A stretch of DNA of 64,000 nucleotides. It comes from a bacterium. Lineage in GTDB: Bacteria; Patescibacteriota; Microgenomatia; UBA1400; PJMF01. Below are positions 2,926 through 53,552 of this stretch, piece by piece. Under the pieces are notes generated by a model. That model was not told where the DNA came from, searched no databases, and worked only from the letters and a program-made list of their open reading frames with translations. How positions within the stretch are numbered: position 1 is the first letter of the stretch; each line of letters opens with the position of its first letter. Made by a program: the position numbers and the translations under genes. Location of the stretch: contig JAQBYG010000002.1 of assembly GCA_027620445.1 (NCBI GenBank), forward strand, positions 1,130 to 65,129, in the 5' to 3' direction.

Positions 2926-4182
2926 ATGCATATTTCTCACATAACCGCGTACGAAATAATAGCTTCCGGAGGCTACCCAACTCTCGAGGTGGAACTCACT
3001 CTTTCTGATGGTAGTACGGGAGTGGCCTCAGTCCCTTATGGTGCTTCGGCAGGATCACACGAAGCGACAGTCTTGGTTGATGGCGACAAAAAACGCTACA
3101 ACGGAAACGGGATGCTGACAGCTATCGATCATGTGGATGAAATTCTCAAACCTGTTTTGACCCAGCAAACATTTACAACCCAAGCAGAGCTCGATAAAAC
3201 CATGATTGGCATCGATGGTACTACCAATAAAAAGAAACTTGGTGGCAACACAATTCTCGCAATCTCTCTCGCGTACGCCAAAGCAGTGGCGAGTAGTCGC
3301 AAGCAACCGCTCTATACCTATATTCTTGAAGAATTCAAGTTACCAACCGTCCGCACGCTACCAAAACCAATGCTCGTCACGATCGAGGGAGGCAAACATG
3401 CAGACAACTCAACTGATCTACAAGAGTTCTGTCTTTCGGCGATGGGAAGCAAACCAACCCACGAACAGATCCGGGCGACACTCGAAACATATCATCAGGT
3501 GAAAAAGATTTTGCATAGTGAAGGCCTATCAACAAATGTCGGCAACGAAGGCGCCTTTGCACCGAGCGGTTTGCCATCAAATGAGAAACCACTCGAATAC
3601 TTAGTTGCAGCGATCAAGCAAGCCGGTTACGAGCCAGGCAAGGACATCGGCATCTCAATCGATGCGGCAGCAAGCGAGTACTACATTGATAAGACATATC
3701 ATCTGAAATTGGAAAAAACGAGTTACGACTCAAAACAAATGGTTGAGTATTACCGACCTTGGCTCGAGAAATATCCAATTGTTAGCTTTGAAGATATGCT
3801 GGACGAGGATGACTGGGACAACTGGCCAGCTATGCAGAAGCTTTGCGCTGAGTTTACTGTGCCGCTCATCGGCGATGACCTCACGGTCACCAATACCAAA
3901 CGACTGCAAAAAGCTATCGAACTTTCTGCAGTATCTGGAGTACTCGTGAAGTTAAATCAAATCGGCACGCTCACCGAAACAATCGAGTGCTGCAAACTTG
4001 CACAAAAACATAATTTGATGATCGTACCGTCCCATCGAGGTGGGGGAGAAACAAACGACACCAGTATGGTCGACGTCGCAGTGGCAGTTGGGGCCTCGTA
4101 TATCAAAGTCGGACCCACGCGTGGCGAACGAGTCTCAAAATATAACCGGCTCCTGGAGATAGAACGGGAAGCAACAGCCTAA
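2926..4182 (+). CDS. eno: Enolase (phosphopyruvate hydratase), paralog 1 (divergent)
   Basis: Enolase motifs are present (ISIDAAASEYY, IGDDLTVTN, KLNQIGTLTET, SHRGGGETND, KYNRLLEIE). The sequence has atypical substitutions, for example HRGGGET instead of HRSGET and FEDML instead of IEDPF. Confidence 0.8.
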   Translation: MHISHITAYEIIASGGYPTLEVELTLSDGSTGVASVPYGASAGSHEATVLVDGDKKRYNGNGMLTAIDHVDEILKPVLTQQTFTTQAELDKTMIGIDGTTNKKKLGGNTILAISLAYAKAVASSRKQPLYTYILEEFKLPTVRTLPKPMLVTIEGGKHADNSTDLQEFCLSAMGSKPTHEQIRATLETYHQVKKILHSEGLSTNVGNEGAFAPSGLPSNEKPLEYLVAAIKQAGYEPGKDIGISIDAAASEYYIDKTYHLKLEKTSYDSKQMVEYYRPWLEKYPIVSFEDMLDEDDWDNWPAMQKLCAEFTVPLIGDDLTVTNTKRLQKAIELSAVSGVLVKLNQIGTLTETIECCKLAQKHNLMIVPSHRGGGETNDTSMVDVAVAVGASYIKVGPTRGERVSKYNRLLEIEREATA

Positions 4183-7788: not shown

Positions 7789-8123
7789 TGTCACGTCCTG
7801 AGTCTGAACACCAGGAATCAAAACTAATTTATCTAAAAGAATGGAAGTTAGAGAACAGAAACAGAGTAGTCATTCCCATGATAATTATCAGCAACACTCA
7901 TTCTGGAAGAAAGTGCCAAGTCTGGCTTAACTTTACATTTAGAAGTGAGTTGATAAAAAATCCAGGTGAGATTGTTAGGGGACTTCCACAAGTAAAAATA
8001 GCAGACAATACTTCATTCACAGTCTGGTCTACTGCTTCAGAATTTGACATAGTGCAAATTGTTAGAAAACTCCTGGAAGGCCTCTGCTACGTAGAAGTTT
8101 TGAACACAACTACTTCACAGTAA
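7789..8123 (+). CDS. Hypothetical protein (AT-rich, no recognisable domain)
   Basis: Part of ORF 7551..8123 that does not overlap the gene on the opposite strand. Local GC is lower than surroundings. Confidence 0.25.
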
Positions 8124-9879
8124 CACTTTTCGCCAAATTTCTCGGCTTGTCAGGATCACGATCGAGCAGAAGTGCTAGCTCGTAGGCGAGTAGCTGCATG
8201 CCCACACTATATGCAATGGTGCTGCTCAGACCAGTGTGCCGTATCGGCAAGCAGTACGAAAACACTTCATTCGGCTCATCCGTAATACCAATAGTGTAAC
8301 CACCCCTGCTTTTGATCTCGATTGCGGTAGAGATCATATCTTGATAGCTAGAATCTTTGGGTGCCAACAAAATACACGGCGTACCTGGCTCAATCAATGC
8401 TATCACTCCATGCTTGAGCTCGCCTGCGGCAAATCCTTCCGTGTGTATATAGGTGACTTCTTTTATTTTAAGCGCGCCCTCTAGGGCAGCCGGATACAGA
8501 GCGCCTCTACCCAACACAAATGAGTGCTCGGCTTTTTTCAGCTTTTGCGCCAAAGGTCTGAGGTACTTCTCTCGATACTGCTTGGTCAGTATGCGCGAGA
8601 CTTCTTGTATCGTCGCTTGTAGTTCTTTCTTGCCTTGCTCTAAAGTTCCAGCCATTTCGTGTGCAAGCAAAAAGAGTACTGCGACCTTGGCAGTCCAAGA
8701 CTTTGTTGCCAACACACACTGCTCCGGTCCGGCTCCCAAAAGAACCTTGTGCTCAGTGGCTCGCTCTAGCGAAGAACCGAGTCTATTCACAATGGCGCCA
8801 AACGAGCGCTTGTTCTGCTGTAGGATCGCGACACTCTCGAGCAAATCGATCGTCTCGCCGCTCTGAGAAATGAACGTTACAAACCCATCACTCGTAAACA
8901 GTGAGCGCGCGGCTGCAAACTCGCTACCCATGTAGGCAGAGCTACTTCTCTTTGCCAAACTTGATAAAAAGTAGACTCCAAGCAGGGCGGCATGGTACGC
9001 ACTGCCACACCCAACAAACGCGAGTTCATCGCTCAGCTGTTTGGCAAAGATTGACAAACTCAGGTGTGCAGTGTCATGAACATGTTGTAACACTTTGGGC
9101 TGTTCTGCAATTTCCTTGATCATAAAATGTGGATACTCACCCAGACTCAAGTCTTCCGCAGAAACATCCAGCTTGCTCCACAGAATTTGTTTTTGCGTAA
9201 GGGTTTCAACTTCATAGAATTCGACACTATCGCTCTGACACACAACTAAATCTCCCTCCTGAAAATAATAAACACTCTCTGTGTATTCGCTCAAAGCAGC
9301 AGCATCACTGGCAAGGTACCGCCCCGTACCATCTACTCCCAGAGCTAGTGGAGAGCCTTTGCTAACCGCAATCAACTGATCAGATACAAGATCCATCACC
9401 ACCAAGGCATTGAGTCCCTGAATGTCCAGAACAGCGCGTTGGACTGCGGTCAAAAAGTCGTAGGACTCACGGTAGTAAGAGATCAATTGCACCGCTACTT
9501 CAGTGTCCGTTTCGGAGACAAAAACATACCCTTTTGCACGCAAATCATCTCTGAGCTCTTGATAGTTTTCGATGATGCCATTGTGCACCAAGGCAATTTG
9601 TTTTTTTGTATCCAAGTGTGGGTGTGCATTTTGCACAGTGACACCGCCATGCGTTGCCCAGCGAGTGTGTCCAATCGCACTAGCACCAACAAACTTTGTA
9701 CCCAAAGTAGCTGTGCCAATTTTCCCAACATGCTTCTCTACCAAAAACTGTGGTTTTCCAGTAGCACGCAGCGCAACTCCCCAACTGTCGTAGCCTCGAT
9801 ACTCGAGCAGTTTTAGACCTTTGAGCACAAGCGCTGCAGCGTCATTTTTTGTACCAATATATCCAAATATTCCACACAT
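8110..9879 (-). CDS. glmS: Glutamine--fructose-6-phosphate aminotransferase
   Basis: MCGIFGYIG N-terminal nucleophile Cys2 and two SIS domains. The ORF track gives an extended start at 9903. Confidence 0.9.
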   Translation of the reverse strand: MCGIFGYIGTKNDAAALVLKGLKLLEYRGYDSWGVALRATGKPQFLVEKHVGKIGTATLGTKFVGASAIGHTRWATHGGVTVQNAHPHLDTKKQIALVHNGIIENYQELRDDLRAKGYVFVSETDTEVAVQLISYYRESYDFLTAVQRAVLDIQGLNALVVMDLVSDQLIAVSKGSPLALGVDGTGRYLASDAAALSEYTESVYYFQEGDLVVCQSDSVEFYEVETLTQKQILWSKLDVSAEDLSLGEYPHFMIKEIAEQPKVLQHVHDTAHLSLSIFAKQLSDELAFVGCGSAYHAALLGVYFLSSLAKRSSSAYMGSEFAAARSLFTSDGFVTFISQSGETIDLLESVAILQQNKRSFGAIVNRLGSSLERATEHKVLLGAGPEQCVLATKSWTAKVAVLFLLAHEMAGTLEQGKKELQATIQEVSRILTKQYREKYLRPLAQKLKKAEHSFVLGRGALYPAALEGALKIKEVTYIHTEGFAAGELKHGVIALIEPGTPCILLAPKDSSYQDMISTAIEIKSRGGYTIGITDEPNEVFSYCLPIRHTGLSSTIAYSVGMQLLAYELALLLDRDPDKPRNLAKSVTVK

Positions 9880-9939
9880 ACGGTTTCTCCTGTGATACGA
9901 CAAATACGAAAAAACAAATGAAAATTTTTTTGCGGGCTA

Positions 9940-10120
9940 CTCAAATGTGACTCTTTATTTTTCTCTTTACAGAGAAGGTTTGAAGTACATCTCACGACAG
10001 TAGAATGCCGATGGGTTTCCGCAGATACTTTTTGCCTTACAGCAAAAGTCCGATCCCTAAGCCATAAAAACTTAGGCCCATTCCTCGTATCCCCAAAACT
10101 TGGGGCCACACGCTCAGATT
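9940..10120 (-). ncRNA. Candidate glmS ribozyme/riboswitch in the glmS 5' leader
   Basis: The leader is about 300 nt and has no coding potential. The minus-strand RNA contains AGCG...GGCCCCAAGUUUUGGGG...ACGAGGA...GGGAUCGGACUUUUG...CUGCGGAAACCC...CUUCAAACC...AAAGAGAAA...UCACAU. These match the GACGAGG core and the CUUCAAACC / AAAGAGAAAUCACAU P3-P4 strings of Bacillus glmS ribozymes, compared from memory. Confidence 0.5.
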
Positions 10121-10194
10121 ACAAATTCCGCTTACACCTCCTTTCACAACTCAATACAAAAGTGAGTATACACTGCTGATATACTTGTTAATTA

Positions 10195-10599
10195 ATGAAA
10201 TCAAAAATAAGCATCATCACGTTGGGCGTTTCAGATTTTGACCGTTCTTTTGCATTTTACTGTAAAGGACTAGGATTTCAGCCACATAACTACAGTGAGG
10301 GCGAGAACTATGTGATGCTTGAAATGGAAGGCACTTGGTTGGCGCTCTGTCCAAAAGAAACATTAATCAAAGATGTAGCACTTCCTATAGGAGAACCGGG
10401 GCTTTCTGAGATAACGCTTGCTCAGAACGTTGCTTCAAAAGAAATGGTTGACCAAGTATTCAAAGAAGCGCTTGCCGTTGGAGCCACCGTAATCAAAGAA
10501 CCCCAAGATGCATTTTGGGGAGGTTACTCTGGATATTTTGCTGACCCAGATGGATATTTGTGGGAAGTTGCTTACAATCCGTATACTGATTTGAGTTAA
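10195..10599 (+). CDS. VOC (glyoxalase/bleomycin-resistance) family protein
   Basis: ITLGVSDFDRSFAFYCKGLGF betaalpha-beta-beta-beta module; 134 aa. Confidence 0.65.
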   Translation: MKSKISIITLGVSDFDRSFAFYCKGLGFQPHNYSEGENYVMLEMEGTWLALCPKETLIKDVALPIGEPGLSEITLAQNVASKEMVDQVFKEALAVGATVIKEPQDAFWGGYSGYFADPDGYLWEVAYNPYTDLS

Positions 10600-24232: not shown

Positions 24233-25780
24233 ATGCGACTCGTGCTCTCACTACTACTCGTTTCACTTTCTATCATCGGAATTGCTGACTCAGGGTATAT
24301 CAGCTGGAACGAATGGCAACAAATTATTCCAGAATGCGGTGCTGGTTTTGATTGTGGCACAGTCCTCTCTAGCCAATGGGCGCGCATCGGACCAGTGCCG
24401 CTCGCTTACATCGGGCTCATCTATTACATAACAGCATTTGCGCTCAGCATCCTCCATGTTGTCGATTTAGAAGCTGGATCAATCACAAAAAAATTACAAC
24501 GCTTCAAAGCAACCCCAATAGAGCTTCTCTGGTTGCTCACCCTCTTTGGTTTTGTTTTTTCGCTGTATTTAATTTGGATCATGGCATTTGCGATAGGAGA
24601 GTGGTGTAAGTACTGTCTCATTTCGGCGGCGACCTCTTCCAGTCTTTTCTTGCTTTCGAGCATATATCTCAAAACTACTCTCAAACATCCGGCATACTGC
24701 ATCCGCACCCTCCTACAAAAAAAGTTCGGTTTTCTGTATCGACATATTGTTAAACCTATCTTCTTTCTGTTTGATGCGGAGTTTATTCATACCAGCATGC
24801 TCAAGACTGGTGAGTCTCTAGGAAAATCAGCTATAGGAAAAACACTTCTGCGACACTGTTTCTCCGTGCAACACCAGAGTCTGCAAACGACAAAAGCAGG
24901 CATATCGTTCCCGAATAAAGTCGGTCTCTCAGCGGGCTTCGATTACAACGGACAACTCACTGGGATTTTACCTTCAGTTGGCTTTGGTTGGCACACCATC
25001 GGAACGGTGACACTGGAACCGTACGAGGGCAACAAAAAACCACGTCTCGGAAGGTTCCCCAACTCCAAAGCATTGCTGGTAAACAAAGGTCTTAAAAACC
25101 TAGGCGCTCGAAGAATCATCGCTAATCTCGAGAATCAGCACTTTGCAATCCCCACGGGCATCAGCATCGCCAGTACTAACAAACACTTTGACTCAACCAA
25201 ACAGCAGATGCTCGATATCGTTGAGTGCTTTTGGCTCTTTGATCACTCTCGAGTTGGCCATGCCTTCTATGAAATGAACATCAGCTGCCCCAACACCTTT
25301 GAGGGCGAGCCATTCACCACACCTGATCGGCTGGAGTTGTTGCTATCAGCATTAGATCAACTGCAACTGTCAAAACCGGTATTCGTAAAAATGCTGATTG
25401 ATCAAGGAGAGCAAGAAACGAGAGCCCTTCTCACTGTGACTGCCAAACATAACACGGCCGGCGTTATTTTCGGCAACCTCACCAAAAATAAAGAAAGCTC
25501 TGTCATGACTGCGGAGGATCGAGAGCAATGGAAAAAGATGCGCGGCAATATCAGTGGCAAACCAACTTGGGAACAATCGAACAAGCATATCGCACTCACT
25601 AAAAAAGAATTTGGCAATCGCTTTGTCATTATTGGCACTGGTGGAATATTTTCTGCCGCAGATGCGGCCGAAAAAATTCGCTTAGGCGCTGATCTCGTCC
25701 AGCTTATCACCGGGATGGTTTTCCAAGGACCCCAACTTATCGGTGAAATCAATTTGGACCAATGCTACAATACCCGTTGA
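24233..25780 (+). CDS. Fusion protein: N-terminal VKOR (vitamin K epoxide reductase) membrane domain + class-2-like dihydroorotate dehydrogenase
   Basis: VKOR hallmarks: loop Cys pair ECGAGFDCG, TM helices and CXXC (GEWCKYC). DHODH hallmarks: IGTVTLEPYEGNKKPRLGRF, NKGLKNLG, MNISCPNT (a Cys where class 2 has Ser) and GTGGIFSAADAAEKIRLGADLVQLITGMVFQGP. Confidence 0.75.
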   Translation: MRLVLSLLLVSLSIIGIADSGYISWNEWQQIIPECGAGFDCGTVLSSQWARIGPVPLAYIGLIYYITAFALSILHVVDLEAGSITKKLQRFKATPIELLWLLTLFGFVFSLYLIWIMAFAIGEWCKYCLISAATSSSLFLLSSIYLKTTLKHPAYCIRTLLQKKFGFLYRHIVKPIFFLFDAEFIHTSMLKTGESLGKSAIGKTLLRHCFSVQHQSLQTTKAGISFPNKVGLSAGFDYNGQLTGILPSVGFGWHTIGTVTLEPYEGNKKPRLGRFPNSKALLVNKGLKNLGARRIIANLENQHFAIPTGISIASTNKHFDSTKQQMLDIVECFWLFDHSRVGHAFYEMNISCPNTFEGEPFTTPDRLELLLSALDQLQLSKPVFVKMLIDQGEQETRALLTVTAKHNTAGVIFGNLTKNKESSVMTAEDREQWKKMRGNISGKPTWEQSNKHIALTKKEFGNRFVIIGTGGIFSAADAAEKIRLGADLVQLITGMVFQGPQLIGEINLDQCYNTR

Positions 25781-35009: not shown

Positions 35010-36407
35010 ATGCCTACTCACTTTTTCAAACAATTGCAAAAAAACTGGTATGTAGTTTCACTCAGTCTTGCACTCATACTCATTTGTCTCACCCGAGTTT
35101 ATAAATTAGACGTATATCCCAGAGGTTTTTTTGTTGATGAGTCCTCGGTTGCATATAATGCACTCAGTATTGCGCTCACAGGAAAAGACGAGTACGGCAT
35201 TCCTTTTCCAGTCTACTTCAAAGCATTTGGTGAGTACAAAAACCCAATACTCATCTACTCCCAGGCACTCCTATACTCCTTTGTTCCTGCGACGATTTAC
35301 ACCGCACGACTCGCACCAGCTCTCTGGGGACTCGCTTTTATTATCCTAACCTGGATCTATACCAAAGGGGAGTCTACCAACCTACGACTGATCAAAACAA
35401 TACTAGTTGCTACCACCCCCTGGCTCTTTCATCTAAGTCGTGTGGACTTTGAAGTGATCGTCTTTCCCACGCTAGTGCTAGCAAGCTTGCTTCCTCTGAG
35501 ACGCTTCTTTTCAAAGCGCAAATCAAGAGACTGGCTTCTTTTTGTTCTAATCATTTCTATATCATTCTATAGCTATACCGCTGCACGATTGCTTGCACCA
35601 CTCATTCTCATTCTGGCTGGAGCAATCACCCTCTTGGCACAAAAGCGAGCAGCTCTCAAACCAATACTACTCGGAATAGTGCTCTCTATACTTATCATAA
35701 CTCCTGCAATAATTTGGAATTATTACTACCCTAATAGCTTGCTCGCTCGCTACGAACTCGTAGGCAAAAGTGATGCACCAATAGCAAGGCAACTCAAAAG
35801 TATTGTGTCAAGATATCGCGAGCACACAAGACTTTCATACCTCTTTGAGGTAGGGGACAATAACTTGCGCCACAGTACTGGCAAAGGTCTGTTGCCGCTG
35901 ATTTCTCTGCCATTATTTCTAATTGGACTAACCCAGTTCTGGCAGAAAAGAAAACATCCCTACAACTGGTTTATCTTGGGAGGTCTTTTACTCAGCCCAC
36001 TACCTGCAGCCATGACATGGGATGATGTTCCGCATGCATTGCGGTCAATTCTCTTTGTCGTTTTCTTTTTACTTGTCGTGTTTGCAGGGCTCGATTGGAC
36101 TATCAAACTGAAACAGGGAAAGCGTTGGTTGACTGTCACTACAATAATAATTTTTGCCGAGTTCTTCAGTTACTGGTCACAGTACCGAGCTGTGTATCAA
36201 ACAACCAACTATAAGTGGTTTTTTGTTGGAGATCTTGAAAAGATAACCGAACTGTATGAGCAAAAGCAAGACTTTGAAATTGAGGAGACGACATTCTTTG
36301 GCACGTATGCCACTGTAGCATTTATCTACCACTACCCACCCGAGTTATTTCAGCGAACAAAACAGGGACACAAAACAGAGCGAATTGAATTTATAGAAAA
36401 TAACTGA
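35010..36407 (+). CDS. GT-C glycosyltransferase, PMT/ArnT (GT39/GT83)-like, paralog C
   Basis: FFVDESSVAYN DE-motif; polytopic; 465 aa. Confidence 0.65.
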   Translation: MPTHFFKQLQKNWYVVSLSLALILICLTRVYKLDVYPRGFFVDESSVAYNALSIALTGKDEYGIPFPVYFKAFGEYKNPILIYSQALLYSFVPATIYTARLAPALWGLAFIILTWIYTKGESTNLRLIKTILVATTPWLFHLSRVDFEVIVFPTLVLASLLPLRRFFSKRKSRDWLLFVLIISISFYSYTAARLLAPLILILAGAITLLAQKRAALKPILLGIVLSILIITPAIIWNYYYPNSLLARYELVGKSDAPIARQLKSIVSRYREHTRLSYLFEVGDNNLRHSTGKGLLPLISLPLFLIGLTQFWQKRKHPYNWFILGGLLLSPLPAAMTWDDVPHALRSILFVVFFLLVVFAGLDWTIKLKQGKRWLTVTTIIIFAEFFSYWSQYRAVYQTTNYKWFFVGDLEKITELYEQKQDFEIEETTFFGTYATVAFIYHYPPELFQRTKQGHKTERIEFIENN

Positions 36408-36478
36408 GCGAGAAACGGGGTTCGAACCCGCGGCCTCTTCCTTGGCAAGGAAGCGCTCTACCACTGAGCTATTCTCGC
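36407..36478 (-). tRNA. tRNA-Gly (anticodon GCC)
   Basis: Acceptor GCGAGAA/UUCUCGC, anticodon loop UUGCCAA, T-loop UUCGAAC. Confidence 0.85.
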
Positions 36479-36695
36479 GCGTCGCTATTGTACAACGAGC
36501 TGGTGTATACTCAAAGTATGAGCATGAAATCATATCTTTCGTCGCCAGATTTTAACCGCAGAGCAGGCTATGCCGGGCAAGACACCGCCAAATTTTTGGG
36601 GAAAACGCTTGGGATAATCATCGCTGAAACTGCGAAATTTATAAAAGAACTTCTCATGAGCATGCTGGGCAAAAGGTAAGCACAAAGAAACTTTG

Positions 36696-36768
36696 TGCCA
36701 AGCTCAGGAATCGAACCTGAATTTCATGTTTTTCAGACATGCGCCGTGACCGACTTGGCTAGCTTGGC
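36696..36768 (-). tRNA. tRNA-Phe (anticodon GAA)
   Basis: Acceptor GCCAAGC/GCUUGGC, anticodon loop CUGAAAA, T-loop UUCGAUU. Confidence 0.8.
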
Positions 36769-36772
36769 ACTG

Positions 36773-36846
36773 TGGACGCTGAGGGATTCGAACCCCCGAC
36801 ACCCGCGATGTAAACGCGGTGCTCTAACCAGCTGAGCTAAGCGTCC
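36773..36846 (-). tRNA. tRNA-Val (anticodon UAC)
   Basis: Acceptor GGACGCU/AGCGUCC, anticodon loop UUUACAU, T-loop UUCGAAU. Confidence 0.85.
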
Positions 36847-36863
36847 GATTCTCTCATCGTCTG

Positions 36864-36944
36864 TGCCCGGGAGAGGACTTGAACCTCCACACCTTTCGGC
36901 ATACGCACCTCAAGCGTACGTGTATACCATTTCACCACCCGGGC
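36864..36944 (-). tRNA. tRNA-Leu (anticodon GAG)
   Basis: Acceptor GCCCGGG/CCCGGGC, anticodon loop UUGAGGU, long variable arm. Confidence 0.8.
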
Positions 36945-36967
36945 TCAAATAGCATTATATAACATTG

Positions 36968-37050
36968 TGCCGAAGAGAGGAGTCGAACCTCCATCCCGCA
37001 AGCGGGACACGCTCCTGAAGCGTGCGCGTCTACCATTCCGCCACTTCGGC
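36968..37050 (-). tRNA. tRNA-Leu (anticodon CAG)
   Basis: Acceptor GCCGAAG/CUUCGGC, anticodon loop UUCAGGA, long variable arm. Confidence 0.8.
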
Positions 37051-37075
37051 ACGTAACACAGACCAGATTGTACCA

Positions 37076-37774
37076 TTACTCGGAGAATTTTTGCTTGAAA
37101 GCCTCGATGATTATGTCTCGAGCTCGCGGGACCGTAAAATACGTTGTATTTATTGTCAAATCAAACACATTCCTGCGCCTATTGTCGGTCACAAAGTATT
37201 GTTTGACAAACTCCTCGCGCTCTGCCTCAACTTTTGCAATTGTTTCTTTTGCCTGCTGATTATTGAATCCCTCAAATTCCATTGCGCGACTCACGCGAAC
37301 AGAGTAGGGGGCGGTGACATTTACATGAAGCCCTTTTGCCTGGGGAGTGAAACTGTTGGCGCCTCTACCCAAAATGACAACATTGCCTTTACATGCGTGG
37401 GCAATAATAACCTTCATCATTTCAGAAATAAAAACCGTATCGCTCACGTACTCTACGTTCAGAACTGAGTGAACAATGTCATCAATGCGAGAACGACTTT
37501 TTTCGTCAAGTTCTTTAATAATTGCGCGTCGCTTTTTTGTGGAGTTTGCGATCTCGTCAATGATCTGTTGATCAATAAACTCAAAGTTAAGCTTCTTGGC
37601 AACCGCCATCGCAATCGGTTTGCCACCACTTCCCGGGTCGCGAGCGATGGTAATAAAGGGGCGAGGAAATGCGTCGTCTGTAGGAATGAGACCACTAATC
37701 TCTTTTTTGAGTTGAAATAAACGGAGTGCTTTATCGACCATTTGCGCGTACGATCGTGCCATGTTTCTCGCCAT
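37076..37774 (-). CDS. Cytidylate-kinase-like family P-loop protein
   Basis: ITIARDPGSGGKPIAMAVAKKLNFEFIDQQ matches the Cytidylate_kin2 (PF13189) signature. The ORF-track N-terminus (to 37987) runs through two tRNA genes, so the start was moved to the MARNMARS Met. Confidence 0.55.
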   Translation of the reverse strand: MARNMARSYAQMVDKALRLFQLKKEISGLIPTDDAFPRPFITIARDPGSGGKPIAMAVAKKLNFEFIDQQIIDEIANSTKKRRAIIKELDEKSRSRIDDIVHSVLNVEYVSDTVFISEMMKVIIAHACKGNVVILGRGANSFTPQAKGLHVNVTAPYSVRVSRAMEFEGFNNQQAKETIAKVEAEREEFVKQYFVTDNRRRNVFDLTINTTYFTVPRARDIIIEAFKQKFSE

Positions 37775-37833
37775 TATACTACTCGATCGTAGGATGTCAT
37801 CTGCAAGCTTCACGATGGTATAATTCAACGGCT

Positions 37834-37907
37834 GCACCCGTAGCTCAATTGGATAGAGCGTCTGTCTTCGGAACAGAAGGTTGTGAGTTCGATTCTCGCC
37901 GGGTGCA
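37834..37907 (+). tRNA. tRNA-Arg (anticodon UCG)
   Basis: Acceptor GCACCCG/CGGGUGC, anticodon loop CUUCGGA, T-loop UUCGAUU. Confidence 0.75.
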
Positions 37908-37912
37908 CACGT

Positions 37913-37986
37913 GGGCCAGTAGCTCAGTTGGTTAGAGCAATTGCCTCTTAAGCAATGTGTCCCGGGTTCGAGTCCCGGCTGGCTCA
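37913..37986 (+). tRNA. tRNA-Lys (anticodon CUU)
   Basis: Acceptor GGGCCAG/CUGGCUC, anticodon loop CUCUUAA, T-loop UUCGAGU. Confidence 0.8.
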
Positions 37987-47005: not shown

Positions 47006-47968
47006 ATGCATCGACCATTTGACGCCCTCGCTGTTGGCTCCATTTACCTCGACATACACTATGGCATGTTTCCCTTCGACTCGAAGGTGGGCATTACTAC
47101 CGAAACGGAAACGGTCGGATCACAGGTGCTCCTGACTGTCGGCGGATCTGCTGCGAACTTTGCACAAATCGCTGCCAGTCTCGGCTTGCAAACGGCACTG
47201 CTTGGCAAAATTGGACAGGACAGAGTGGGCGATATCGTAACTGAAGAGCTTGGTAAACTCAAAATTCAACAGCTTATTTTTACCGATCCAGGGGTGAGAA
47301 CCAACGTCAGTTCGCACTTCACCAACCCAAGTGGAAGAACAATTCAAACCACGGGTGGCTCTGCCAACGCTGCGCTCAATCCCGAAGATGTCTTTCGCGT
47401 TATTCGCAATTACTTCGACAAAATTTCGACTCTCTACATCGGCAGTTACTTCAAACTCACCGCACTCCAAGCTGGATATTATGATTTGGTCAAAGACGCA
47501 CTGGCGGCAGGCATCGAGGTACTCCTTGACCATGGCATGATTAGCAATGTGGTGGAAAAGTCGCATATCGAAAAAGTACAAAAAATGATTGAACAGGTAA
47601 CCTACTATCGACCAAACGAAAATGAGTTCAAAACAATCTGGGATGTAGATTCTATCGAGGCAGGCTTTAAAAAATTACAACAGCTTTCTACGCGTCCAGA
47701 AACGGTCGTAACTAGAGGAGGAGAAGGCGCCATTGGCCTCGATCAAAGTGGGAATGTGTACGATGTCCCAAGTTTTTCGATCACTCCAAAGAATGCCGTT
47801 GGTGCTGGAGATAGTTTTAATGCGGGCTATCTCTACGCAAGAAAAAGTGGCAAAGAAATGCTAGAGTCAATCCAATTTGCACATGCGGTGGCTGCAGTTC
47901 GTATTTCCGAATCTCCATTACCAACTATAGAGCAAGTAACAAGTATGTTAGGAGCCAAAAATGTCTAA
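47006..47968 (+). CDS. PfkB-family carbohydrate kinase
   Basis: GGSAANFAQIAASLGL motif and C-terminal GAGDSFNAGYL anion hole. Confidence 0.8.
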   Translation: MHRPFDALAVGSIYLDIHYGMFPFDSKVGITTETETVGSQVLLTVGGSAANFAQIAASLGLQTALLGKIGQDRVGDIVTEELGKLKIQQLIFTDPGVRTNVSSHFTNPSGRTIQTTGGSANAALNPEDVFRVIRNYFDKISTLYIGSYFKLTALQAGYYDLVKDALAAGIEVLLDHGMISNVVEKSHIEKVQKMIEQVTYYRPNENEFKTIWDVDSIEAGFKKLQQLSTRPETVVTRGGEGAIGLDQSGNVYDVPSFSITPKNAVGAGDSFNAGYLYARKSGKEMLESIQFAHAVAAVRISESPLPTIEQVTSMLGAKNV

Positions 47969-49043
47969 ACACACTGCCATTCTCGATAATCTTGCCGAGA
48001 TGGACAAGATTGACGCCAATCATACTCGTGGTTCTATCGAGCAAATCGCTCAGCAAGTACAACATGTTTGGGAACAGGCACAGTCACTCACAATCTCTGA
48101 CGAATACAAACAAGTGACAAATATCGTGGTTGGTGGCATGGGTGGCTCAGCTCTCGGGACACATGTCATCCAGACAGTATTCAAAGATGAGTTACAACTA
48201 CCTGTCACCATTGTGCCGGACTATACGCTGCCAGCCTCTGTCAACGAAAAAACCCTTTTTATTGCTTCAAGTTACTCTGGGAGTACAGAGGAAACACTGA
48301 GCTCAACTAAACAAGCACTGGCTCGAGGTGCAAAAGTTGCAGGTATCACTTCCGGTGGGGAGCTCGCGAAAATGCTTGCCGCAGCCGGTGTGCCGAGACT
48401 GGTGTTTACCCCGACCTACAACCCATCTGGCCAACCAAGAATGGCGCTCGGATACTCCGTCTTTGGGCAGATTGCACTCCTGAGCAAGCTCGGTGTGCTT
48501 GAGGTCACAGACAAACATGTTGACGCTGTGTTGGCTGCTATCGCAAGTATGCACCTCAAAGCCGGCGTCGCGGTCTCTGAAGCAGAGAATCCTGCTAAAT
48601 TACTGGCGTACCAAATTGAGCAACGCATTCCTATTCTCACGGTAGCTGAGCACCTAGAGGGTGTGGCGCACGTTTTTGCCAATCAATTGAACGAAAATGC
48701 TAAGACATACTCAGAGTACCGAGTGGTGCCAGAGATCAATCACCACTTGCTCGAAGGTCTGAAGTATCCGATTAACAGAGATGACATGCTCTTTTTCTTT
48801 ACTGTTCTCTCAAAGCTATACCTGCCTGGAAACAGCAAGCGAATGTTGCTCACACAAGAGGTGCTACAAAAAAATAACATCGAGTTCCAGACACTTGAAC
48901 TCACCAGTGAAACAAAACTGGAACAAGCCTTCGAACTTCTCACCTTTGGTGCCTACGTTACCTTCTACTCGGCTATGCTCCATGGCTTTGATCCAGCTCC
49001 AATCCCAGTGGTCGATTGGTTTAAGGAACAGCTCAAACACTAG
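47961..49043 (+). CDS. Bifunctional phosphoglucose/phosphomannose isomerase (SIS-domain PGI/PMI family)
   Basis: VVGGMGGSALG and SYSGSTEETL SIS motifs; 360 aa. Confidence 0.7.
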   Translation: MSKHTAILDNLAEMDKIDANHTRGSIEQIAQQVQHVWEQAQSLTISDEYKQVTNIVVGGMGGSALGTHVIQTVFKDELQLPVTIVPDYTLPASVNEKTLFIASSYSGSTEETLSSTKQALARGAKVAGITSGGELAKMLAAAGVPRLVFTPTYNPSGQPRMALGYSVFGQIALLSKLGVLEVTDKHVDAVLAAIASMHLKAGVAVSEAENPAKLLAYQIEQRIPILTVAEHLEGVAHVFANQLNENAKTYSEYRVVPEINHHLLEGLKYPINRDDMLFFFTVLSKLYLPGNSKRMLLTQEVLQKNNIEFQTLELTSETKLEQAFELLTFGAYVTFYSAMLHGFDPAPIPVVDWFKEQLKH

Positions 49044-49068
49044 CCTCGAGTTGTGCTAGGATGGTTGT

Positions 49069-50559
49069 ATGCCTGCCGCATACTTGCTTGAACAACTACC
49101 TATTTCTAGTGGAGTGCCAAATCGCTTGCGCTTGCTACGCCAAGCACAGATGCTTGGTTTGCCCGTAGCTCCCACGCTCTACATTTCTCCCGGAGCTATA
49201 TTTGCTTCATTTTTGCAGCAAAAAAACTGTGCCCAACTACTCGAAGAGAGGAGAGCTTTTGGTGACGACCCTGCATTAGTACACCTCGCCGAAGCAAAAA
49301 TACTCCAACTCTTTCGTGCCACTACTCTCGATACTTCACTCGCAAAAGATATCATGCAACACTACCATCAGCACCTGCGGGGTTCGTTTGTTCGAGTATT
49401 TTTCACTCGAGGGATTGCCACAAATACCGACAACATTCTCGGCGACAGCAACCTGCTTGAATCAATCATCCTGGCTTCACATATGCTTTTGGAACTTGCG
49501 CTCGCGGCAAGTCGATCTGCTCCGACATCTGTTCTCGAAGTTGCCGCTGGCATGTGCATACAAACACAACTACAAGCCTCTGGCTCGGGCACAACGTACT
49601 CAAAACATCCGCTTCATCCAGAAAAAAATGTGTTTGCTATCTCGGCGCGATTCGGCGTGACACCTCCAGGAAAAGCCAGCGAGCAACTGGATTGGTACGA
49701 GATACACAAATCAACAGGACAAGAAACTGCTGTGGCGATCGGAACAAAAACCCTTACCTACAAACGTACTGCTGATTCTCTCGAAAAAAAAGGTGTGGCG
49801 GCAAAGCAACAGCTACAACGGGTTTTGTCGAAAAAGCAAAGTGAGTTGCTCGCCAAACTAACAGCAAGTATCTCGCAAAAAGAATTCCTCCCTCTCAGAG
49901 TGGACTGGGAAATGGAGGGGAACAGCATTTCGATTACTGAGATTACAGAACTCGATCAACCAAAGACAGCACAAAAATCTGCGACCGTCCACACAACACA
50001 AGTCGTACAACCAGCCGACAGCTTGTGGGTTCGAATTGACCCTTCATGGAAACAACGACCCGACCACCTGGTCACCCTCATCGCAGAACTCGCCAATACA
50101 CATCAATTGGAACCAAAAACCAATATCATCGTGCCCCACGTTACCTCAAGTCATGAGCTTGCAGTCATGCGCGAACACCTCCTTGCAGCCACACTCGCTC
50201 ACCAGAGCCGAAGTTATTGGCCAGAAATCACAAGCGTTGGGATGCTACACACATTACCTGAGAGTCCTGCGCTCGAGTTCTTCGCCGGTATTATTCTGGA
50301 TGTCCCGATGCTGCTTCGGTCATTATTTGTGACCCCGAGCTGGGACGAGGCAGAGCTTGAACTACTATTTTCTCTCATCGAGGAGCACGTGCCTACGCGT
50401 CTGAATCGGGGTATTGTCCTACATGCTGTAACTCCAACCATCATTTCGCATCTTTCGGGACAAGTGTACAAACACGTACACACTCCAACAGACTTGGTCC
50501 AAAAAGTAAAAGCAGTACTATCTGATCTTGAAGTCGAAAGGCTGAACACGCTACCATAG
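49069..50559 (+). CDS. PEP-synthase/PPDK-like protein lacking the phosphohistidine motif (degenerate PEP-utilising enzyme)
   Basis: N-terminus resembles the PPDK_N ATP-grasp (GVPNRLRLLRQAQMLGLPVAPTLYISPG, VRVFFTRGIATNTDNILGDS). C-terminus resembles the PEP-utilising TIM-barrel (IIVPHVTSSHELAVMREHL). No GGxTSHAAI-type central motif is present. Confidence 0.35.
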   Translation: MPAAYLLEQLPISSGVPNRLRLLRQAQMLGLPVAPTLYISPGAIFASFLQQKNCAQLLEERRAFGDDPALVHLAEAKILQLFRATTLDTSLAKDIMQHYHQHLRGSFVRVFFTRGIATNTDNILGDSNLLESIILASHMLLELALAASRSAPTSVLEVAAGMCIQTQLQASGSGTTYSKHPLHPEKNVFAISARFGVTPPGKASEQLDWYEIHKSTGQETAVAIGTKTLTYKRTADSLEKKGVAAKQQLQRVLSKKQSELLAKLTASISQKEFLPLRVDWEMEGNSISITEITELDQPKTAQKSATVHTTQVVQPADSLWVRIDPSWKQRPDHLVTLIAELANTHQLEPKTNIIVPHVTSSHELAVMREHLLAATLAHQSRSYWPEITSVGMLHTLPESPALEFFAGIILDVPMLLRSLFVTPSWDEAELELLFSLIEEHVPTRLNRGIVLHAVTPTIISHLSGQVYKHVHTPTDLVQKVKAVLSDLEVERLNTLP

Positions 50560-50565
50560 ACACAC

Positions 50566-51861
50566 ATGCCAAATATTCAAGGAGTATACGCCAGAGAAAT
50601 ACTTGATTCCCGTGGATTACCGACGATTGAGTGCACCTTGTGGCTTGATACCGGTGGTATCGTTCTGACAAGTGTTCCTGCGGGCACATCTGTCGGCAAG
50701 TACGAAGCACACGAGCTCAGAGATAAAGACCCCAATCGCATGATCGGCATGGGAGTGCTCCAGGCGGTAAATAATATCAACACAATTATCGCACCACAAC
50801 TTGTCGGCAAAGACCCGACTCAGCAAGCAGAAATCGACCAGCTGCTCATCGCACTTGATGGCACACCAGATAAATCAAAACTAGGCGCCAATGCAATTCT
50901 CGCTGTCTCACAAGCTGTCTGCAAAGCTGGGGCTCTCACCAACAATGTTGCTTTGTACTACTACATTTTCAACAAGTTTCAGCTTGCACAAGAGCTCATC
51001 ATTCCGACAAATATTTTTACCGTCATAAACGGCGGCGAGCATGGAGCCGACAACCTTGATCTGCAAGAGTTTCAACTCTTGCCCGCAAGTCATATATCCT
51101 TCCCAGATTCGCTCAGTATGGCTGTCACGCTCTATCAAAAACTAGAAGAAGTACTGATTTTGAAAGGCGCTATTCACTCAGTTGGCCTTGTCGGTGGCTT
51201 CACCCCGAATCTGTACAGCAACAGCGATGTGTTCGATATCTTGGTAGAAACAATCAAGTCGAGTCAATACACGCTTGCCCAAGACCTGTTTTTTGGCATC
51301 GATGCCGCAGCTGACGAGTTTCACAGTGCTGGCAAGTACACCCTGCGGGACCGATCACAGCCCTACTCGAGCAATGAGCTTATTGAGTACTACAGAAAAA
51401 TTCGTAGCTTGTATAACGTGTTTTATGTTGAAGACCCCTTTTCAGATGATGATCTTGGTGCATGGGCAACGATAACAGAGTATCTTGGCGACACCACCAA
51501 AATTGTTGGAGATAGTTTGCTCGTGACAAGTCAGGAAAAAGTAAAGGAAGCCATCGAAAAAAAATACTGCAACACACTGCTGGTAAAACCAAATCAGGTA
51601 GGAACCATTACCGAAACAATCGCTGTTATCTCTCTTGCTCGTCAAGCAGGCTGGAGTATCGTTGTGTCACATCGTAGTGGTGAAACCAACGATGACTTTA
51701 TCGCAGACTTTGCAGTCGGGGTTGGCGCAGAGTACACCAAGTTCGGCCCGCCAAACAGAGGAGAGCGAACAGCCAAGTACAACCGCCTCTCGCAGATCCA
51801 CCAAGAGATCGAAATGTCTCGCCAACAACAGGCTGCCGCACCACAACAAGCTCAGTCATGA
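50566..51861 (+). CDS. eno: Enolase (phosphopyruvate hydratase), paralog 2
   Basis: Canonical enolase motifs (GIDAAADEFH, YVEDPFSDDD, VKPNQVGTITET, SHRSGETNDDFIADFAVG, KYNRLSQIHQE). Carries VGDSLLVTS where VGDDL is usual. Confidence 0.9.
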   Translation: MPNIQGVYAREILDSRGLPTIECTLWLDTGGIVLTSVPAGTSVGKYEAHELRDKDPNRMIGMGVLQAVNNINTIIAPQLVGKDPTQQAEIDQLLIALDGTPDKSKLGANAILAVSQAVCKAGALTNNVALYYYIFNKFQLAQELIIPTNIFTVINGGEHGADNLDLQEFQLLPASHISFPDSLSMAVTLYQKLEEVLILKGAIHSVGLVGGFTPNLYSNSDVFDILVETIKSSQYTLAQDLFFGIDAAADEFHSAGKYTLRDRSQPYSSNELIEYYRKIRSLYNVFYVEDPFSDDDLGAWATITEYLGDTTKIVGDSLLVTSQEKVKEAIEKKYCNTLLVKPNQVGTITETIAVISLARQAGWSIVVSHRSGETNDDFIADFAVGVGAEYTKFGPPNRGERTAKYNRLSQIHQEIEMSRQQQAAAPQQAQS

Positions 51862-53552
51862 CACAACCAGCAGTTGCACCAATTCTCTCAAGCAAACCGC
51901 TTGACCCTTCGCTTTCACAAAACAATTACACGGGACCAAAACCGGTCGTGCTTCTCGTGCTCGATGGTTGGGGGATCGGACCAAAAAACGCAGGCAACGC
52001 AATTGCCCAAGCCAAAACACCAAATATGGATGGCTACTGGGTCTCGTATCCACATACCCAACTCACTGCCAGTGGCCAGGCTGTCGGCTTGCCGCAGGGA
52101 GAAGACGGCAATACCGAAACCGGTCACTTAAACATTGGCGCCGGACACATCGTGTACCAAGATTTGCCCAGAATTAACATGTCCATTGCAGATGGTTCGT
52201 TTTTCTCTAACCAAGCATTGCTAAACGCTGCCCAGCACGTCAAAAATAATAGCAGCACCCTGCACTTGATGGGCCTGGTTGGGGCGGGCGGCGTCCACTC
52301 AAATATCGAGCACCTCTATGCACTCCTCAACTTTGCCAAACAGCAAAATTTGACAAAAGTGTACATTCACGCCTTCACAGACGGCCGAGACTCGCCGGCA
52401 ACAGCAGGTATCGAGTACATCAAGCAACTGATGGCGAGCTGCGAACACATGGGAGTCGGCCAAATTGCTACACTCATGGGGCGCTACTATGCTATGGACA
52501 GAGATCATAAGTGGGAACGAATCGAGAAAGCGTACGATGCCCTAACTCTTGGAAGTACTGAATCATGCGTACTAGATCCACTACAACTGTTTCAAGATCA
52601 GTACGACAAGGGCGTTACCGACGAATTTATTGAACCGATCAGTATCTGTGGTCATGATAAGCAGAAGCGAACGATCGATAAAAATGATGCGGTGATTTTT
52701 TTCAACTTTCGCGTCGATCGTCCTCGCGAACTGACTCGAGCCTTTGTCACGCCAGACTTTGAACAAGGTATACACACCGCCGCATTCGATCCATACACAG
52801 AAAAGTATGAAAAGACAAATATTCAAAAACCAATCACTGGTCAAACGTTTCAACGAAAAAAACGATTGAGCAACCTGTACTTTGTGACAATGACTGAGTA
52901 TGAAGCTGGTCTACCAGTAGATATTGCCTTTCCTCCCCAAAAAATCCTGCATCCCCTCGGACAGGTTTTCTCTCAACACGGCTTGCGACAACTCCGCATT
53001 ACCGAGAGTGAAAAAGAACGCTTTGTCACGTACTACATGAATGGGCAGCTAGAGACAATGTATCCTGGTGAGGATCGGGTTATTATTCCGTCAAAAGGGG
53101 TAAAGTCGTACGATCAGGCTCCCGAAATGAGTGCCTTTGAGATTGCGCAAGAAATGATCTCACGCATCATGACCGACACCTACCATGTCATTATTTCCAA
53201 TATCTGCAACGGGGATATGGTTGGACACACGGGCAATTTTGAGGCTGCTGTGAAAGCCTGTGAGTATGTCGATCAGGTTGTGGGACAAATTGTTGCTGCC
53301 GTAACCCAAAAAGGCGGTGTTGTACTCATCACCGCTGATCATGGCAATGTCGAGGAGATGATCAATGTCGAAACCGGCGCAGTTGATACCGAGCACTCGG
53401 TATACCCCGTGCCACTCCTGATCATTGGCAACCAGTTTGCACAAAAACCAGTTATGTTGCCGACCGGCATTTTGGCCGACGTGGCACCTACGATGCTCAA
53501 GTTAATGGGCATCACTCCACCGGAAAGTATGACGGGCAGATCTTTGATATAG
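51858..53552 (+). CDS. gpmI: 2,3-bisphosphoglycerate-independent phosphoglycerate mutase
   Basis: VVLLVLDGWGIG N-terminus, the catalytic Ser region and ITADHGN. Its start overlaps the enolase stop (ATGA). Confidence 0.9.
   Translation: MTQPAVAPILSSKPLDPSLSQNNYTGPKPVVLLVLDGWGIGPKNAGNAIAQAKTPNMDGYWVSYPHTQLTASGQAVGLPQGEDGNTETGHLNIGAGHIVYQDLPRINMSIADGSFFSNQALLNAAQHVKNNSSTLHLMGLVGAGGVHSNIEHLYALLNFAKQQNLTKVYIHAFTDGRDSPATAGIEYIKQLMASCEHMGVGQIATLMGRYYAMDRDHKWERIEKAYDALTLGSTESCVLDPLQLFQDQYDKGVTDEFIEPISICGHDKQKRTIDKNDAVIFFNFRVDRPRELTRAFVTPDFEQGIHTAAFDPYTEKYEKTNIQKPITGQTFQRKKRLSNLYFVTMTEYEAGLPVDIAFPPQKILHPLGQVFSQHGLRQLRITESEKERFVTYYMNGQLETMYPGEDRVIIPSKGVKSYDQAPEMSAFEIAQEMISRIMTDTYHVIISNICNGDMVGHTGNFEAAVKACEYVDQVVGQIVAAVTQKGGVVLITADHGNVEEMINVETGAVDTEHSVYPVPLLIIGNQFAQKPVMLPTGILADVAPTMLKLMGITPPESMTGRSLI

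Follow-up and report, generated by a model that had tools for sequence, protein, structure and literature searches.

The glmS locus and its leader

We analyzed a 64,000-nucleotide (nt) stretch of contig JAQBYG010000002.1 (hereafter, the window), from a bacterium of the Candidate Phyla Radiation (CPR; Patescibacteria), and focused on the leader of its glmS gene, which probably encodes a glmS ribozyme. The gene itself specifies a glutamine--fructose-6-phosphate transaminase (N terminus MCGIFGYIGTK...; 100% identical to MDA1079174.1), and the UvrB protein encoded in the window is 79 to 80% identical to proteins labeled Candidatus Pacebacteria. As the original prediction had it, glmS is preceded by a long noncoding leader: 315 nt on the minus strand separate it from a divergently oriented glyoxalase-family gene, which bounds the gap. 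The element delimited by Rfam family RF00234 (Table 1) lies on the coding strand, within the 5' untranslated region (UTR) of glmS, with 55 nt between its 3' end and the ATG. A scan of the leader gap for promoters and terminators returned nothing convincing.

Table 1. Coordinates of the glmS locus, of the predicted parts of the ribozyme, and of the strings named in the original prediction (SD, Shine-Dalgarno sequence; aa, amino acids; strand sequences are given as RNA, 5' to 3')
Feature	Position	Strand	Remarks
glmS	8110..9890	-	SD GGAG 9890-9887, ATG 9879-9877, stop at 8110, 589 aa
Noncoding gap	9880..10194	-	from the glmS side to the divergent neighbor
Glyoxalase-family gene	begins at 10195	+	
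glmS ribozyme, delimited by Rfam	9935..10125	-	full-length RF00234 match
SD-like GAAAGGAGG	10137..10145	-	~24 nt upstream of the predicted cut
P0 5' strand GCGG	10128..10131	-	on the fragment that cleavage would free
Predicted cleavage site	between A-1 (10114) and G1 (10113)	-	RF00234 alignment
P2.2 5' strand CGUG (canonical CGCC)	10109..10112	-	pairs with UGCG 10023-10020
P1 hairpin CCCCAAGUUUUGGGG	10091..10105	-	6/6 pairs with compensatory changes (67 sequences)
Catalytic core strand ACGAGGA	10082..10088	-	RF00234 alignment; invariant in all relatives
P2.1	C10087/G10086 with G10051/C10052	-	RF00234 alignment
P2	AUGGG 10081-10077 with CCCAU 10015-10011	-	100% paired; 2/5 pairs with compensatory changes
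Extra core hairpin, between P2 5' strand and P2.1 3' strand	10056..10076	-	absent from the Rfam consensus
Extended P2a hairpin	10027..10049	-	all pairs with compensatory changes
P2.2 3' strand UGCG (10023-10020), G10019, AAA, P2 3' strand CCCAU	10011..10023	-	
P3 hairpin	9995..10010	-	loop CUAC 10003-10000 = P3.1 5' strand
P4/P4.1 domain	9944..9991	-	RF00234 alignment, covariation, fold
A-rich P4 internal loop	CAAAC 9982-9978 and AUAAAG 9958-9953	-	
GNRA loop GUAA	9970-9967	-	within the P4/P4.1 domain
P3.1 3' strand GUAG	9937..9940	-	pairs with P3 loop CUAC; pseudoknot
P0 3' strand CCGC	9932..9935	-	pairs with GCGG 10131-10128
AGCG	10114-10111	-	string of the original prediction
GGCCCC...GGGG hairpin	10107-10091	-	string of the original prediction
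ACGAGGA	10088-10082	-	string of the original prediction
GGGAUCG	10057-10051	-	string of the original prediction
CUGCGGAAACCC	10024-10013	-	string of the original prediction
CUUCAAACC	9985-9977	-	string of the original prediction
AAAGAGAAA	9968-9960	-	string of the original prediction
UCACAU	9950-9945	-	string of the original prediction

A divergent member of the glmS ribozyme family upstream of glmS

RF00234, the glmS ribozyme family, matches the leader over its entire length (model positions 1 to 167 of 167) with a score of 39.6 bits, the gathering score being 37 (E = 9.3e-8 in a search of 701 nt, from 9700 to 10400, with laxer filters). The search of the minus strand that the original prediction had proposed thus came out positive above the curated threshold, and the eight strings in which it had recognized the ribozyme were all found on that strand, with verified coordinates. 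The nucleotides of the core, on whose alignment the original prediction had made its claim depend, could be placed as well: A-1/G1 (10114/10113), ACGAGG (10088 to 10083), CG (10052 to 10051), and CGG (10021 to 10019) all align. G10086 of ACGAGG corresponds to G39 of the Bacillus subtilis ribozyme (numbering of PMC11602151), which we infer to be the position that had been referred to as the G33/G40 equivalent. In the B. subtilis ribozyme, a double pseudoknot, an A37-C38-G39-A40 strand, G66/G67, a purine stack in the P4 internal loop, and an L4 tetraloop have been described (PMC11602151). The core positions kept in the window (ACGAGG, the A-G cleavage dinucleotide, CGG, the A-rich P4 loop, and the GNRA loop) match those that are functionally critical there. 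On every point of sequence and structure that could be tested, the element agrees with membership in the glmS ribozyme family; judged from its sequence, the window copy diverges from the canonical form in a lineage-specific way and scores only just above the threshold.

Within the core, the RF00234 alignment places 51 nt at a point at which the model has 12. The inserted nucleotides form an extra hairpin and an extended P2a, both of which are also present in the minimum-free-energy fold. The AGCG at the cleavage site is kept in the relatives, with a G at position -1 in 3 of about 50 sequences, and P2.2 in the window consists of the pairs C-G, G-C, U.G, and G.U.

The proposed structure is supported by covariation at two levels. 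First, nine sequences were aligned without reference to any structure; in this alignment, 96.7% of the cells were in standard pairs and 27 of the 51 pairs showed compensatory changes, against at most 49% paired cells when the partners were slid by 1 to 3 columns and with none of 500 shuffles reaching the observed values. Second, a covariance model built from these nine sequences (R1) gave a sole match in the window (9929 to 10122, 188.7 bits) and 67 matches among the gathered loci. Across the 67 sequences, 94.6% of the cells were paired (36 to 44% after sliding) and compensatory changes were seen in 36 of 47 pairs, including every pair of the P2a extension and each of the six in the inserted hairpin (90.5% of cells paired). 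Since it was fitted to R1, this larger alignment favors the structure; the nine sequences, aligned independently, give the same result.

Compensatory changes were found in every helix that varies. The P3.1 strand covaries with the P3 loop, reading CUUC/GAAG in one relative (L092) and CUCC/GGAG, UUGC/GCAA, or UCAGC/GCUGA in others. Similarly, the two strands of P2.2 change together among the distinct insertion-bearing sequences (UG/UG in 48, CC/GG in 4, CA/AG in 11, and mixed combinations in a few). In the 67-sequence alignment, pair 5/63 is G.U in 51 sequences and, compensated, C-G in 3, and pair 4/64 is U.G in 51 and C-G in 13. P2.1 (C-G in 61 of 67 sequences and G-C in 65 of 67) is invariant and is therefore compatible with pairing, without proof of it from covariation.

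A helix between leader and tail

Directly following P3.1, the tail of the element is complementary to a leader segment that lies about 11 to 16 nt 5' of the cut, and substitutions in one segment are matched in the other. In this helix, here called P0, the GCGG/CCGC pairing of the window is replaced in relatives by GGUCAUG/CAUGAUC (L092), GCAG/CUGC (L098), UGCGG/CCGCA (L089 and L120), GAAGUAAA/UUUACUUC (L188 and L114), GAUAAGAGUAG/CUACUCUUAUC (L129), GAUAAAAGUAGA/UCUACUUUUAUC (L125), GAGAAAGCGAUU/AGUCGCUUUCUC (L124), GAGGCG/CGCCUC (L160), AGAAGGC/GCCUUCU (L178), or GGAGGUGGA/UCCACUUUC (L122), and a CAUG/CAUG pairing is also among the covarying versions. In members such as L124 and L129, P0 is 10 to 12 bp long. 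Since register shifts between sequences defeat a pair count over fixed columns, a permutation test was used. Over 44 nonredundant sequences, the best contiguous helix had a mean score of 17.3, compared with 13.8 for leaders combined with foreign tails (p = 2e-7) and 12.6 for shuffled tails (p = 1.5e-12), and duplex energies agreed with these scores. A pairing of G1-C2-G3 with the tail CGC, suggested by RNAalifold, was set aside, the tail being better explained as the covarying P0 partner of GCGG. We know of no leader-tail helix such as P0 that has been described for glmS ribozymes.

One relative (L144, 518 to 740) shows an unusual arrangement around this helix: the glmS AUG follows the end of P4 after only 24 nt, with no SD between them, and a promoter-like sequence (TTGACA-17-TAATCT) is followed, at the extreme 5' end, by AAGGAGG, which adjoins AGACGA, the strand of P0 whose partner is UCGUCU. 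The AAGGAGG could be an SD that is carried near the AUG across P0, or it could be sequestered by P0.

Occurrence in relatives and in other lineages

All tested relatives with a long leader (GlmS 50 to 68% identical) carry an RF00234 match above the threshold 5' of glmS, with scores of 58.1 bits (L083), 54.7 (L087), 53.5 (L092), 51.8 (L084), 46.4 (L089), 43.0 (L090), and 41.5 (L081 and L082). No RF00234 match was found in L085, a relative with a gap of only 126 nt. In alignments of these relatives, the ribozyme is conserved and its flanks have diverged. Among 20 further loci of the class, 17 passed the gathering score (37 to 69 bits). As for the identity of the hosts, a cluster mate of the relative whose GlmS is 66% identical is labeled Candidatus Woesebacteria, and the GlmS of another member of the class, encoded on a 0.9-Mb contig, is labeled Patescibacteria group; several copies were found on single contigs of 1.0 to 1.3 Mb. 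Together with the UvrB identity, this places the window in a CPR genome of the Microgenomates type.

Additional copies came from a pattern scan of metagenomes, with a pattern that covered the core only and allowed an insertion of 35 to 65 nt. It returned 96 stretches, about 20 of which were GC-rich chance matches and the remainder ribozymes, yielding about 50 further distinct copies; nearly all of these are followed, 83 to 233 nt past the pattern match, by the start of glmS (ATG-TGY-GGN-AT, encoding MCGI).

A scan of GTDB with the window GlmS gave a closest identity of 47%, and 80 loci were examined for ribozymes. Model R1 detected them in Firmicutes and Anaerolineae only, and Rfam added one in Chloroflexia; the glmS loci of Uhrbacteria and Liptonbacteria had no ribozyme match in the Rfam scan. 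In loci labeled Levybacteria (L189:1-2964) and Gottesmanbacteria (L191:1-2973), glmS follows 2 to 9 nt after a glmU-like gene (NTP_transferase plus hexapeptide) and has no leader, so that an operon arrangement takes the place of the ribozyme leader, which means that not all Microgenomates have the ribozyme. The original prediction had called the element typical of Firmicutes and had been surprised to see it in a genome of this kind. The first part does not strictly hold, with canonical copies present in Chloroflexia and Anaerolineae loci too. The occurrence in a CPR genome, which had caused the surprise, is real. No published description of a glmS ribozyme in CPR was found in the literature searched.

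Some members of the class differ from the window copy. In L125 (269 to 434) and L181 (7151 to 7324), P4.1 is missing and P4 forms a plain stem-loop; the RF00234 score of L125 is only 29 bits, under the gathering score. Nine others (L124, L152, L158, L160, L161, L163, L167, L171, and L178) lack an SD before the glmS AUG, and in this subgroup an A(A/C)GCAC motif is conserved about 6 to 12 nt 5' of the start codon.

Proposed mechanism and alternative explanations

Members of the glmS ribozyme family cleave themselves when activated by glucosamine-6-phosphate (GlcN6P), leaving 2',3'-cyclic phosphate and 5'-OH ends, and in Bacillus, glmS expression is lowered through decay of the 5'-OH product by RNase J1. 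We consider it probable, at roughly 85%, that the glmS leader of the window encodes a genuine ribozyme-riboswitch of this family, belonging to a structural subclass of CPR/Patescibacteria. Its RNA would fold into a double-pseudoknot core (P2, P2.1, and P2.2) backed by P1, P3/P3.1, and P4/P4.1. GlcN6P, the product of GlmS, would upon accumulation bind as a cofactor, whereupon the RNA would cut itself at A10114/G10113. The glmS message would thereby shed its native 5' segment, including the 5' strand of P0 and the SD-like GAAAGGAGG, and the remaining 5'-OH message would be degraded or otherwise expressed less, resulting in negative feedback on GlmS synthesis. The homology to RF00234, the position 5' of glmS, the covariation (new helices included), and the retention of the core nucleotides are observed directly; GlcN6P dependence, cleavage, and the way in which cleavage would lead to repression we infer by analogy with known members of the family. 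In Bacillus, the 5'-OH cleavage product is rapidly degraded (PMC5473149).

Several observations weigh against this interpretation. The RF00234 score exceeds the gathering score by a mere 2.6 bits, and when the whole window was scanned with Rfam at the gathering threshold and with default filters, 12 tRNAs only were reported and the ribozyme was missed, which is an effect of the speed filters and not of absence. The highly conserved C4 and C5 of canonical copies are replaced, and P2.2, which canonical ribozymes require, is weaker. P0 amounts to just 4 bp in the window, all of them G-C. No sigma-70-type promoter passed the scan of positions 10126 to 10194. Finally, no RNase J gene was found in the 64-kb window (open reading frames [ORFs] of at least 150 aa compared with Pfam), for which reason the Bacillus decay route is unconfirmed for this host.

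A variant of the mechanism accepts the same ribozyme and places the regulatory effect elsewhere: cleavage would shed a 5' protective module, made up of GAAAGGAGG, as a stabilizer that binds ribosomes, and of P0, which would hold the 5' region in base pairs, and the loss of that module, not RNase J, would destabilize or silence the message. We regard this as possible but clearly less probable than the mechanism outlined above. The motif, a 9-mer that we take to be identical to that of cry3A, lies 5 nt upstream of P0 and occurs once in the window, a lone copy that is not significant by itself. A wider pattern is suggested by the relatives: an SD core 5-mer at positions -42 to -19 was present in 17 of 47 nonredundant leaders, compared with 2.9 +/- 1.6 in shuffled ones (maximum, 10 in 2,000 shuffles), and the real positions cluster at -28 to -34. 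No conserved ORF lies behind the motif and no usable start codon follows it. The known element that this brings to mind is STAB-SD of Bacillus thuringiensis cry3A, a strong SD-like sequence in the 5' UTR that starts no ORF; in Bacillus, such elements block the 5'-to-3' decay that RNase J1 carries out (PMC4113751). Unlike STAB-SD, the motif in the window sits upstream of a self-cleavage site, so that its removal would be conditional. On one reading, GAAAGGAGG would then be a putative stabilizer of the STAB-SD type that is shed on cleavage, in keeping with the covariation of P0, whose 5' strand would leave with the fragment cut off, and with the SD-like motifs that precede canonical ribozymes as well, in Oscillospiraceae and Anaerolineae loci. 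On another reading, which fits some members, the purine-rich motif may merely extend P0. Moreover, only about one-third of the class members carry it, and it is only presumed to lie near the 5' end of the transcript and to match the 16S 3' end, which lies outside the window.

Extending this idea to the class as a whole, we tentatively suggest that CPR-type glmS ribozymes form a distinct architectural subclass whose released segment is a functional module, with P0 clamping the leader to the 3' tail and an SD-like GAAAGGAGG next to it; the odds are against this broader proposal as it stands. Perhaps the P0 clamp compensates for the wobble-weakened P2.2.

Two further observations concern the SD-like motif. 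An upstream ORF behind it was considered and rejected, only mechanical ORFs running through the ribozyme being present; the one codon resembling a start between motif and cut is a UUG, 12 nt after GGAGG and directly followed by UAA (10122 to 10117, minus strand). Ahead of canonical ribozymes, the SD-like sequences GAAAGGAG and AGGAGGUG are located about 35 to 40 nt 5' of the cleavage site (L062, ~1869 to 1876, Oscillospiraceae; L064, ~2692 to 2699, Anaerolineae).

It is unlikely that the leader is a relic, i.e., a passive 5' UTR structure derived from a ribozyme that no longer cleaves or requires GlcN6P. The marginal Rfam score, the change of C4C5 to UG with its two wobble pairs in P2.2, and the 51-nt insertion in the core all speak for such a relic, but the core is invariant over about 50 distinct sequences in which GlmS has diverged to 50% identity and the flanks are free to vary. 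In addition, the change at pair 5/63 is compensated, all tertiary-contact motifs are kept, and the inserted hairpins covary and are therefore under selection.

Still less probable is a three-part translational switch, in which the upstream GGAGG would be paired with a tract of pyrimidines in the tail and cleavage would free this tract to sequester the SD of glmS. U/C-rich tracts complementary to GGAG do occur between ribozyme and SD in the window and its relatives, and single cases such as L120 look persuasive, but duplex energies do not improve on those of shuffled tracts (mean z = -0.06 for tract and SD and +0.30 for leader and tract; n = 17), the complementarity being explained by U-richness alone. 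With pairing no better than that of shuffled tracts, this anti-SD/anti-anti-SD arrangement was rejected. Lastly, chance resemblance in an AT-rich intergenic region, to which the low score margin and a z-score of only -1.26 for the minimum-free-energy fold might point, is refuted for practical purposes by the E value of 9.3e-8 and by the dozens of sequences that show conserved synteny and covariation.

Other features of the window

Although the genome is presumably small, the window contains two full-length enolase genes, at 2926 to 4182 and at 50566 to 51861 (both on the plus strand), the second of which is part of a glycolytic cluster (47006 to 53552) together with genes for PGI, a PfkB kinase, and iPGM. 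At 24233 to 25780 (plus strand), a VKOR domain, at the N terminus, and a dihydroorotate dehydrogenase domain are encoded in a single ORF. Seven tRNA genes are clustered at 36407 to 37986, on both strands, and five more are scattered over the window.

Significance

A genuine glmS ribozyme in this leader would extend one of the few natural ribozymes that depend on a metabolite into the CPR, for which no discussion of regulation by natural riboswitches or ribozymes was found in the literature searched. It would also mean that minimal CPR genomes keep RNA-based feedback on the synthesis of cell wall precursors. Because an Rfam scan with default filters misses the window copy, such elements are probably underannotated in CPR genome bins. 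The variant can furthermore be seen as a natural experiment on the ribozyme core, with two top-conserved nucleotides replaced, a hairpin tolerated in the double pseudoknot, and a new helix joining leader and tail, and could be of use in modeling how the RNA folds and how its cleavage leads to repression. If the released segment is indeed a functional module, glmS would be regulated by the shedding of a 5' protective or ribosome-binding module and not only by the creation of a 5'-OH end. Finally, a native element that cleaves itself under ligand control could be turned into a tool for CPR genetics, a need that has been noted (PMC11665869).

Comparison with known glmS ribozymes

The window copy shares with the canonical ribozymes of RF00234 (those of B. 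subtilis, B. anthracis, and T. tengcongensis) the location in the 5' UTR of glmS, the A-G cleavage site, and the ACGAGG core. The overall architecture is common to both as well: P1, the double pseudoknot of P2, P2.1, and P2.2, P3/P3.1, and P4/P4.1 with its A-rich loop and GNRA loop.

Where canonical copies have the strongly conserved AGCGCC at the cleavage-site strand, the window has AGCGUG, and the partner strand is AUCUGCGG in the class of the window instead of the canonical UUCGGCGG, with U replacing G. Relative to the canonical AGCGCC/GGCG, the cleavage dinucleotide with the CG that follows it is kept, as is the pairing, at the cost of two wobble pairs. A 21-nt hairpin is inserted between P2 and P2.1, and P2a measures 23 nt. 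The G preceding ACGAGG is variable in this class (U in the window), unlike in canonical copies, and the sequence before the P2 3' strand is GGAAA, not GGAUG, with AAA, GAA, or GAG but not AUG occurring in the class. P0 is likewise a feature of this class that is not part of the RF00234 model. A canonical copy from Chloroflexia scores 85 bits on RF00234, above the entire range of the class.

McCown, Roth, and Breaker reportedly described, in 2011, structural variants of the glmS ribozyme from Deinococcus-Thermus with extra stems in the catalytic core and altered peripheral substructures. Like those discussed here, these variants are reported to be rare and lineage specific, to have additional core stems, and to be associated with glmS, but they belong to a different phylum. 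Our collection also contains a second insertion-bearing class, defined by AGCGCA(A/U)GG together with AUCAGCGG and represented by 11 distinct sequences, several of them from hot springs (e.g., L099, L126, L130, L139, and L177). In this class, positions 5/63 are A/A, and a long P3 region contains UCUCUCCC, the complement of the leader sequence immediately 5' of the cut (GGGAGAGA). This second class may correspond to the Deinococcus-Thermus variants.

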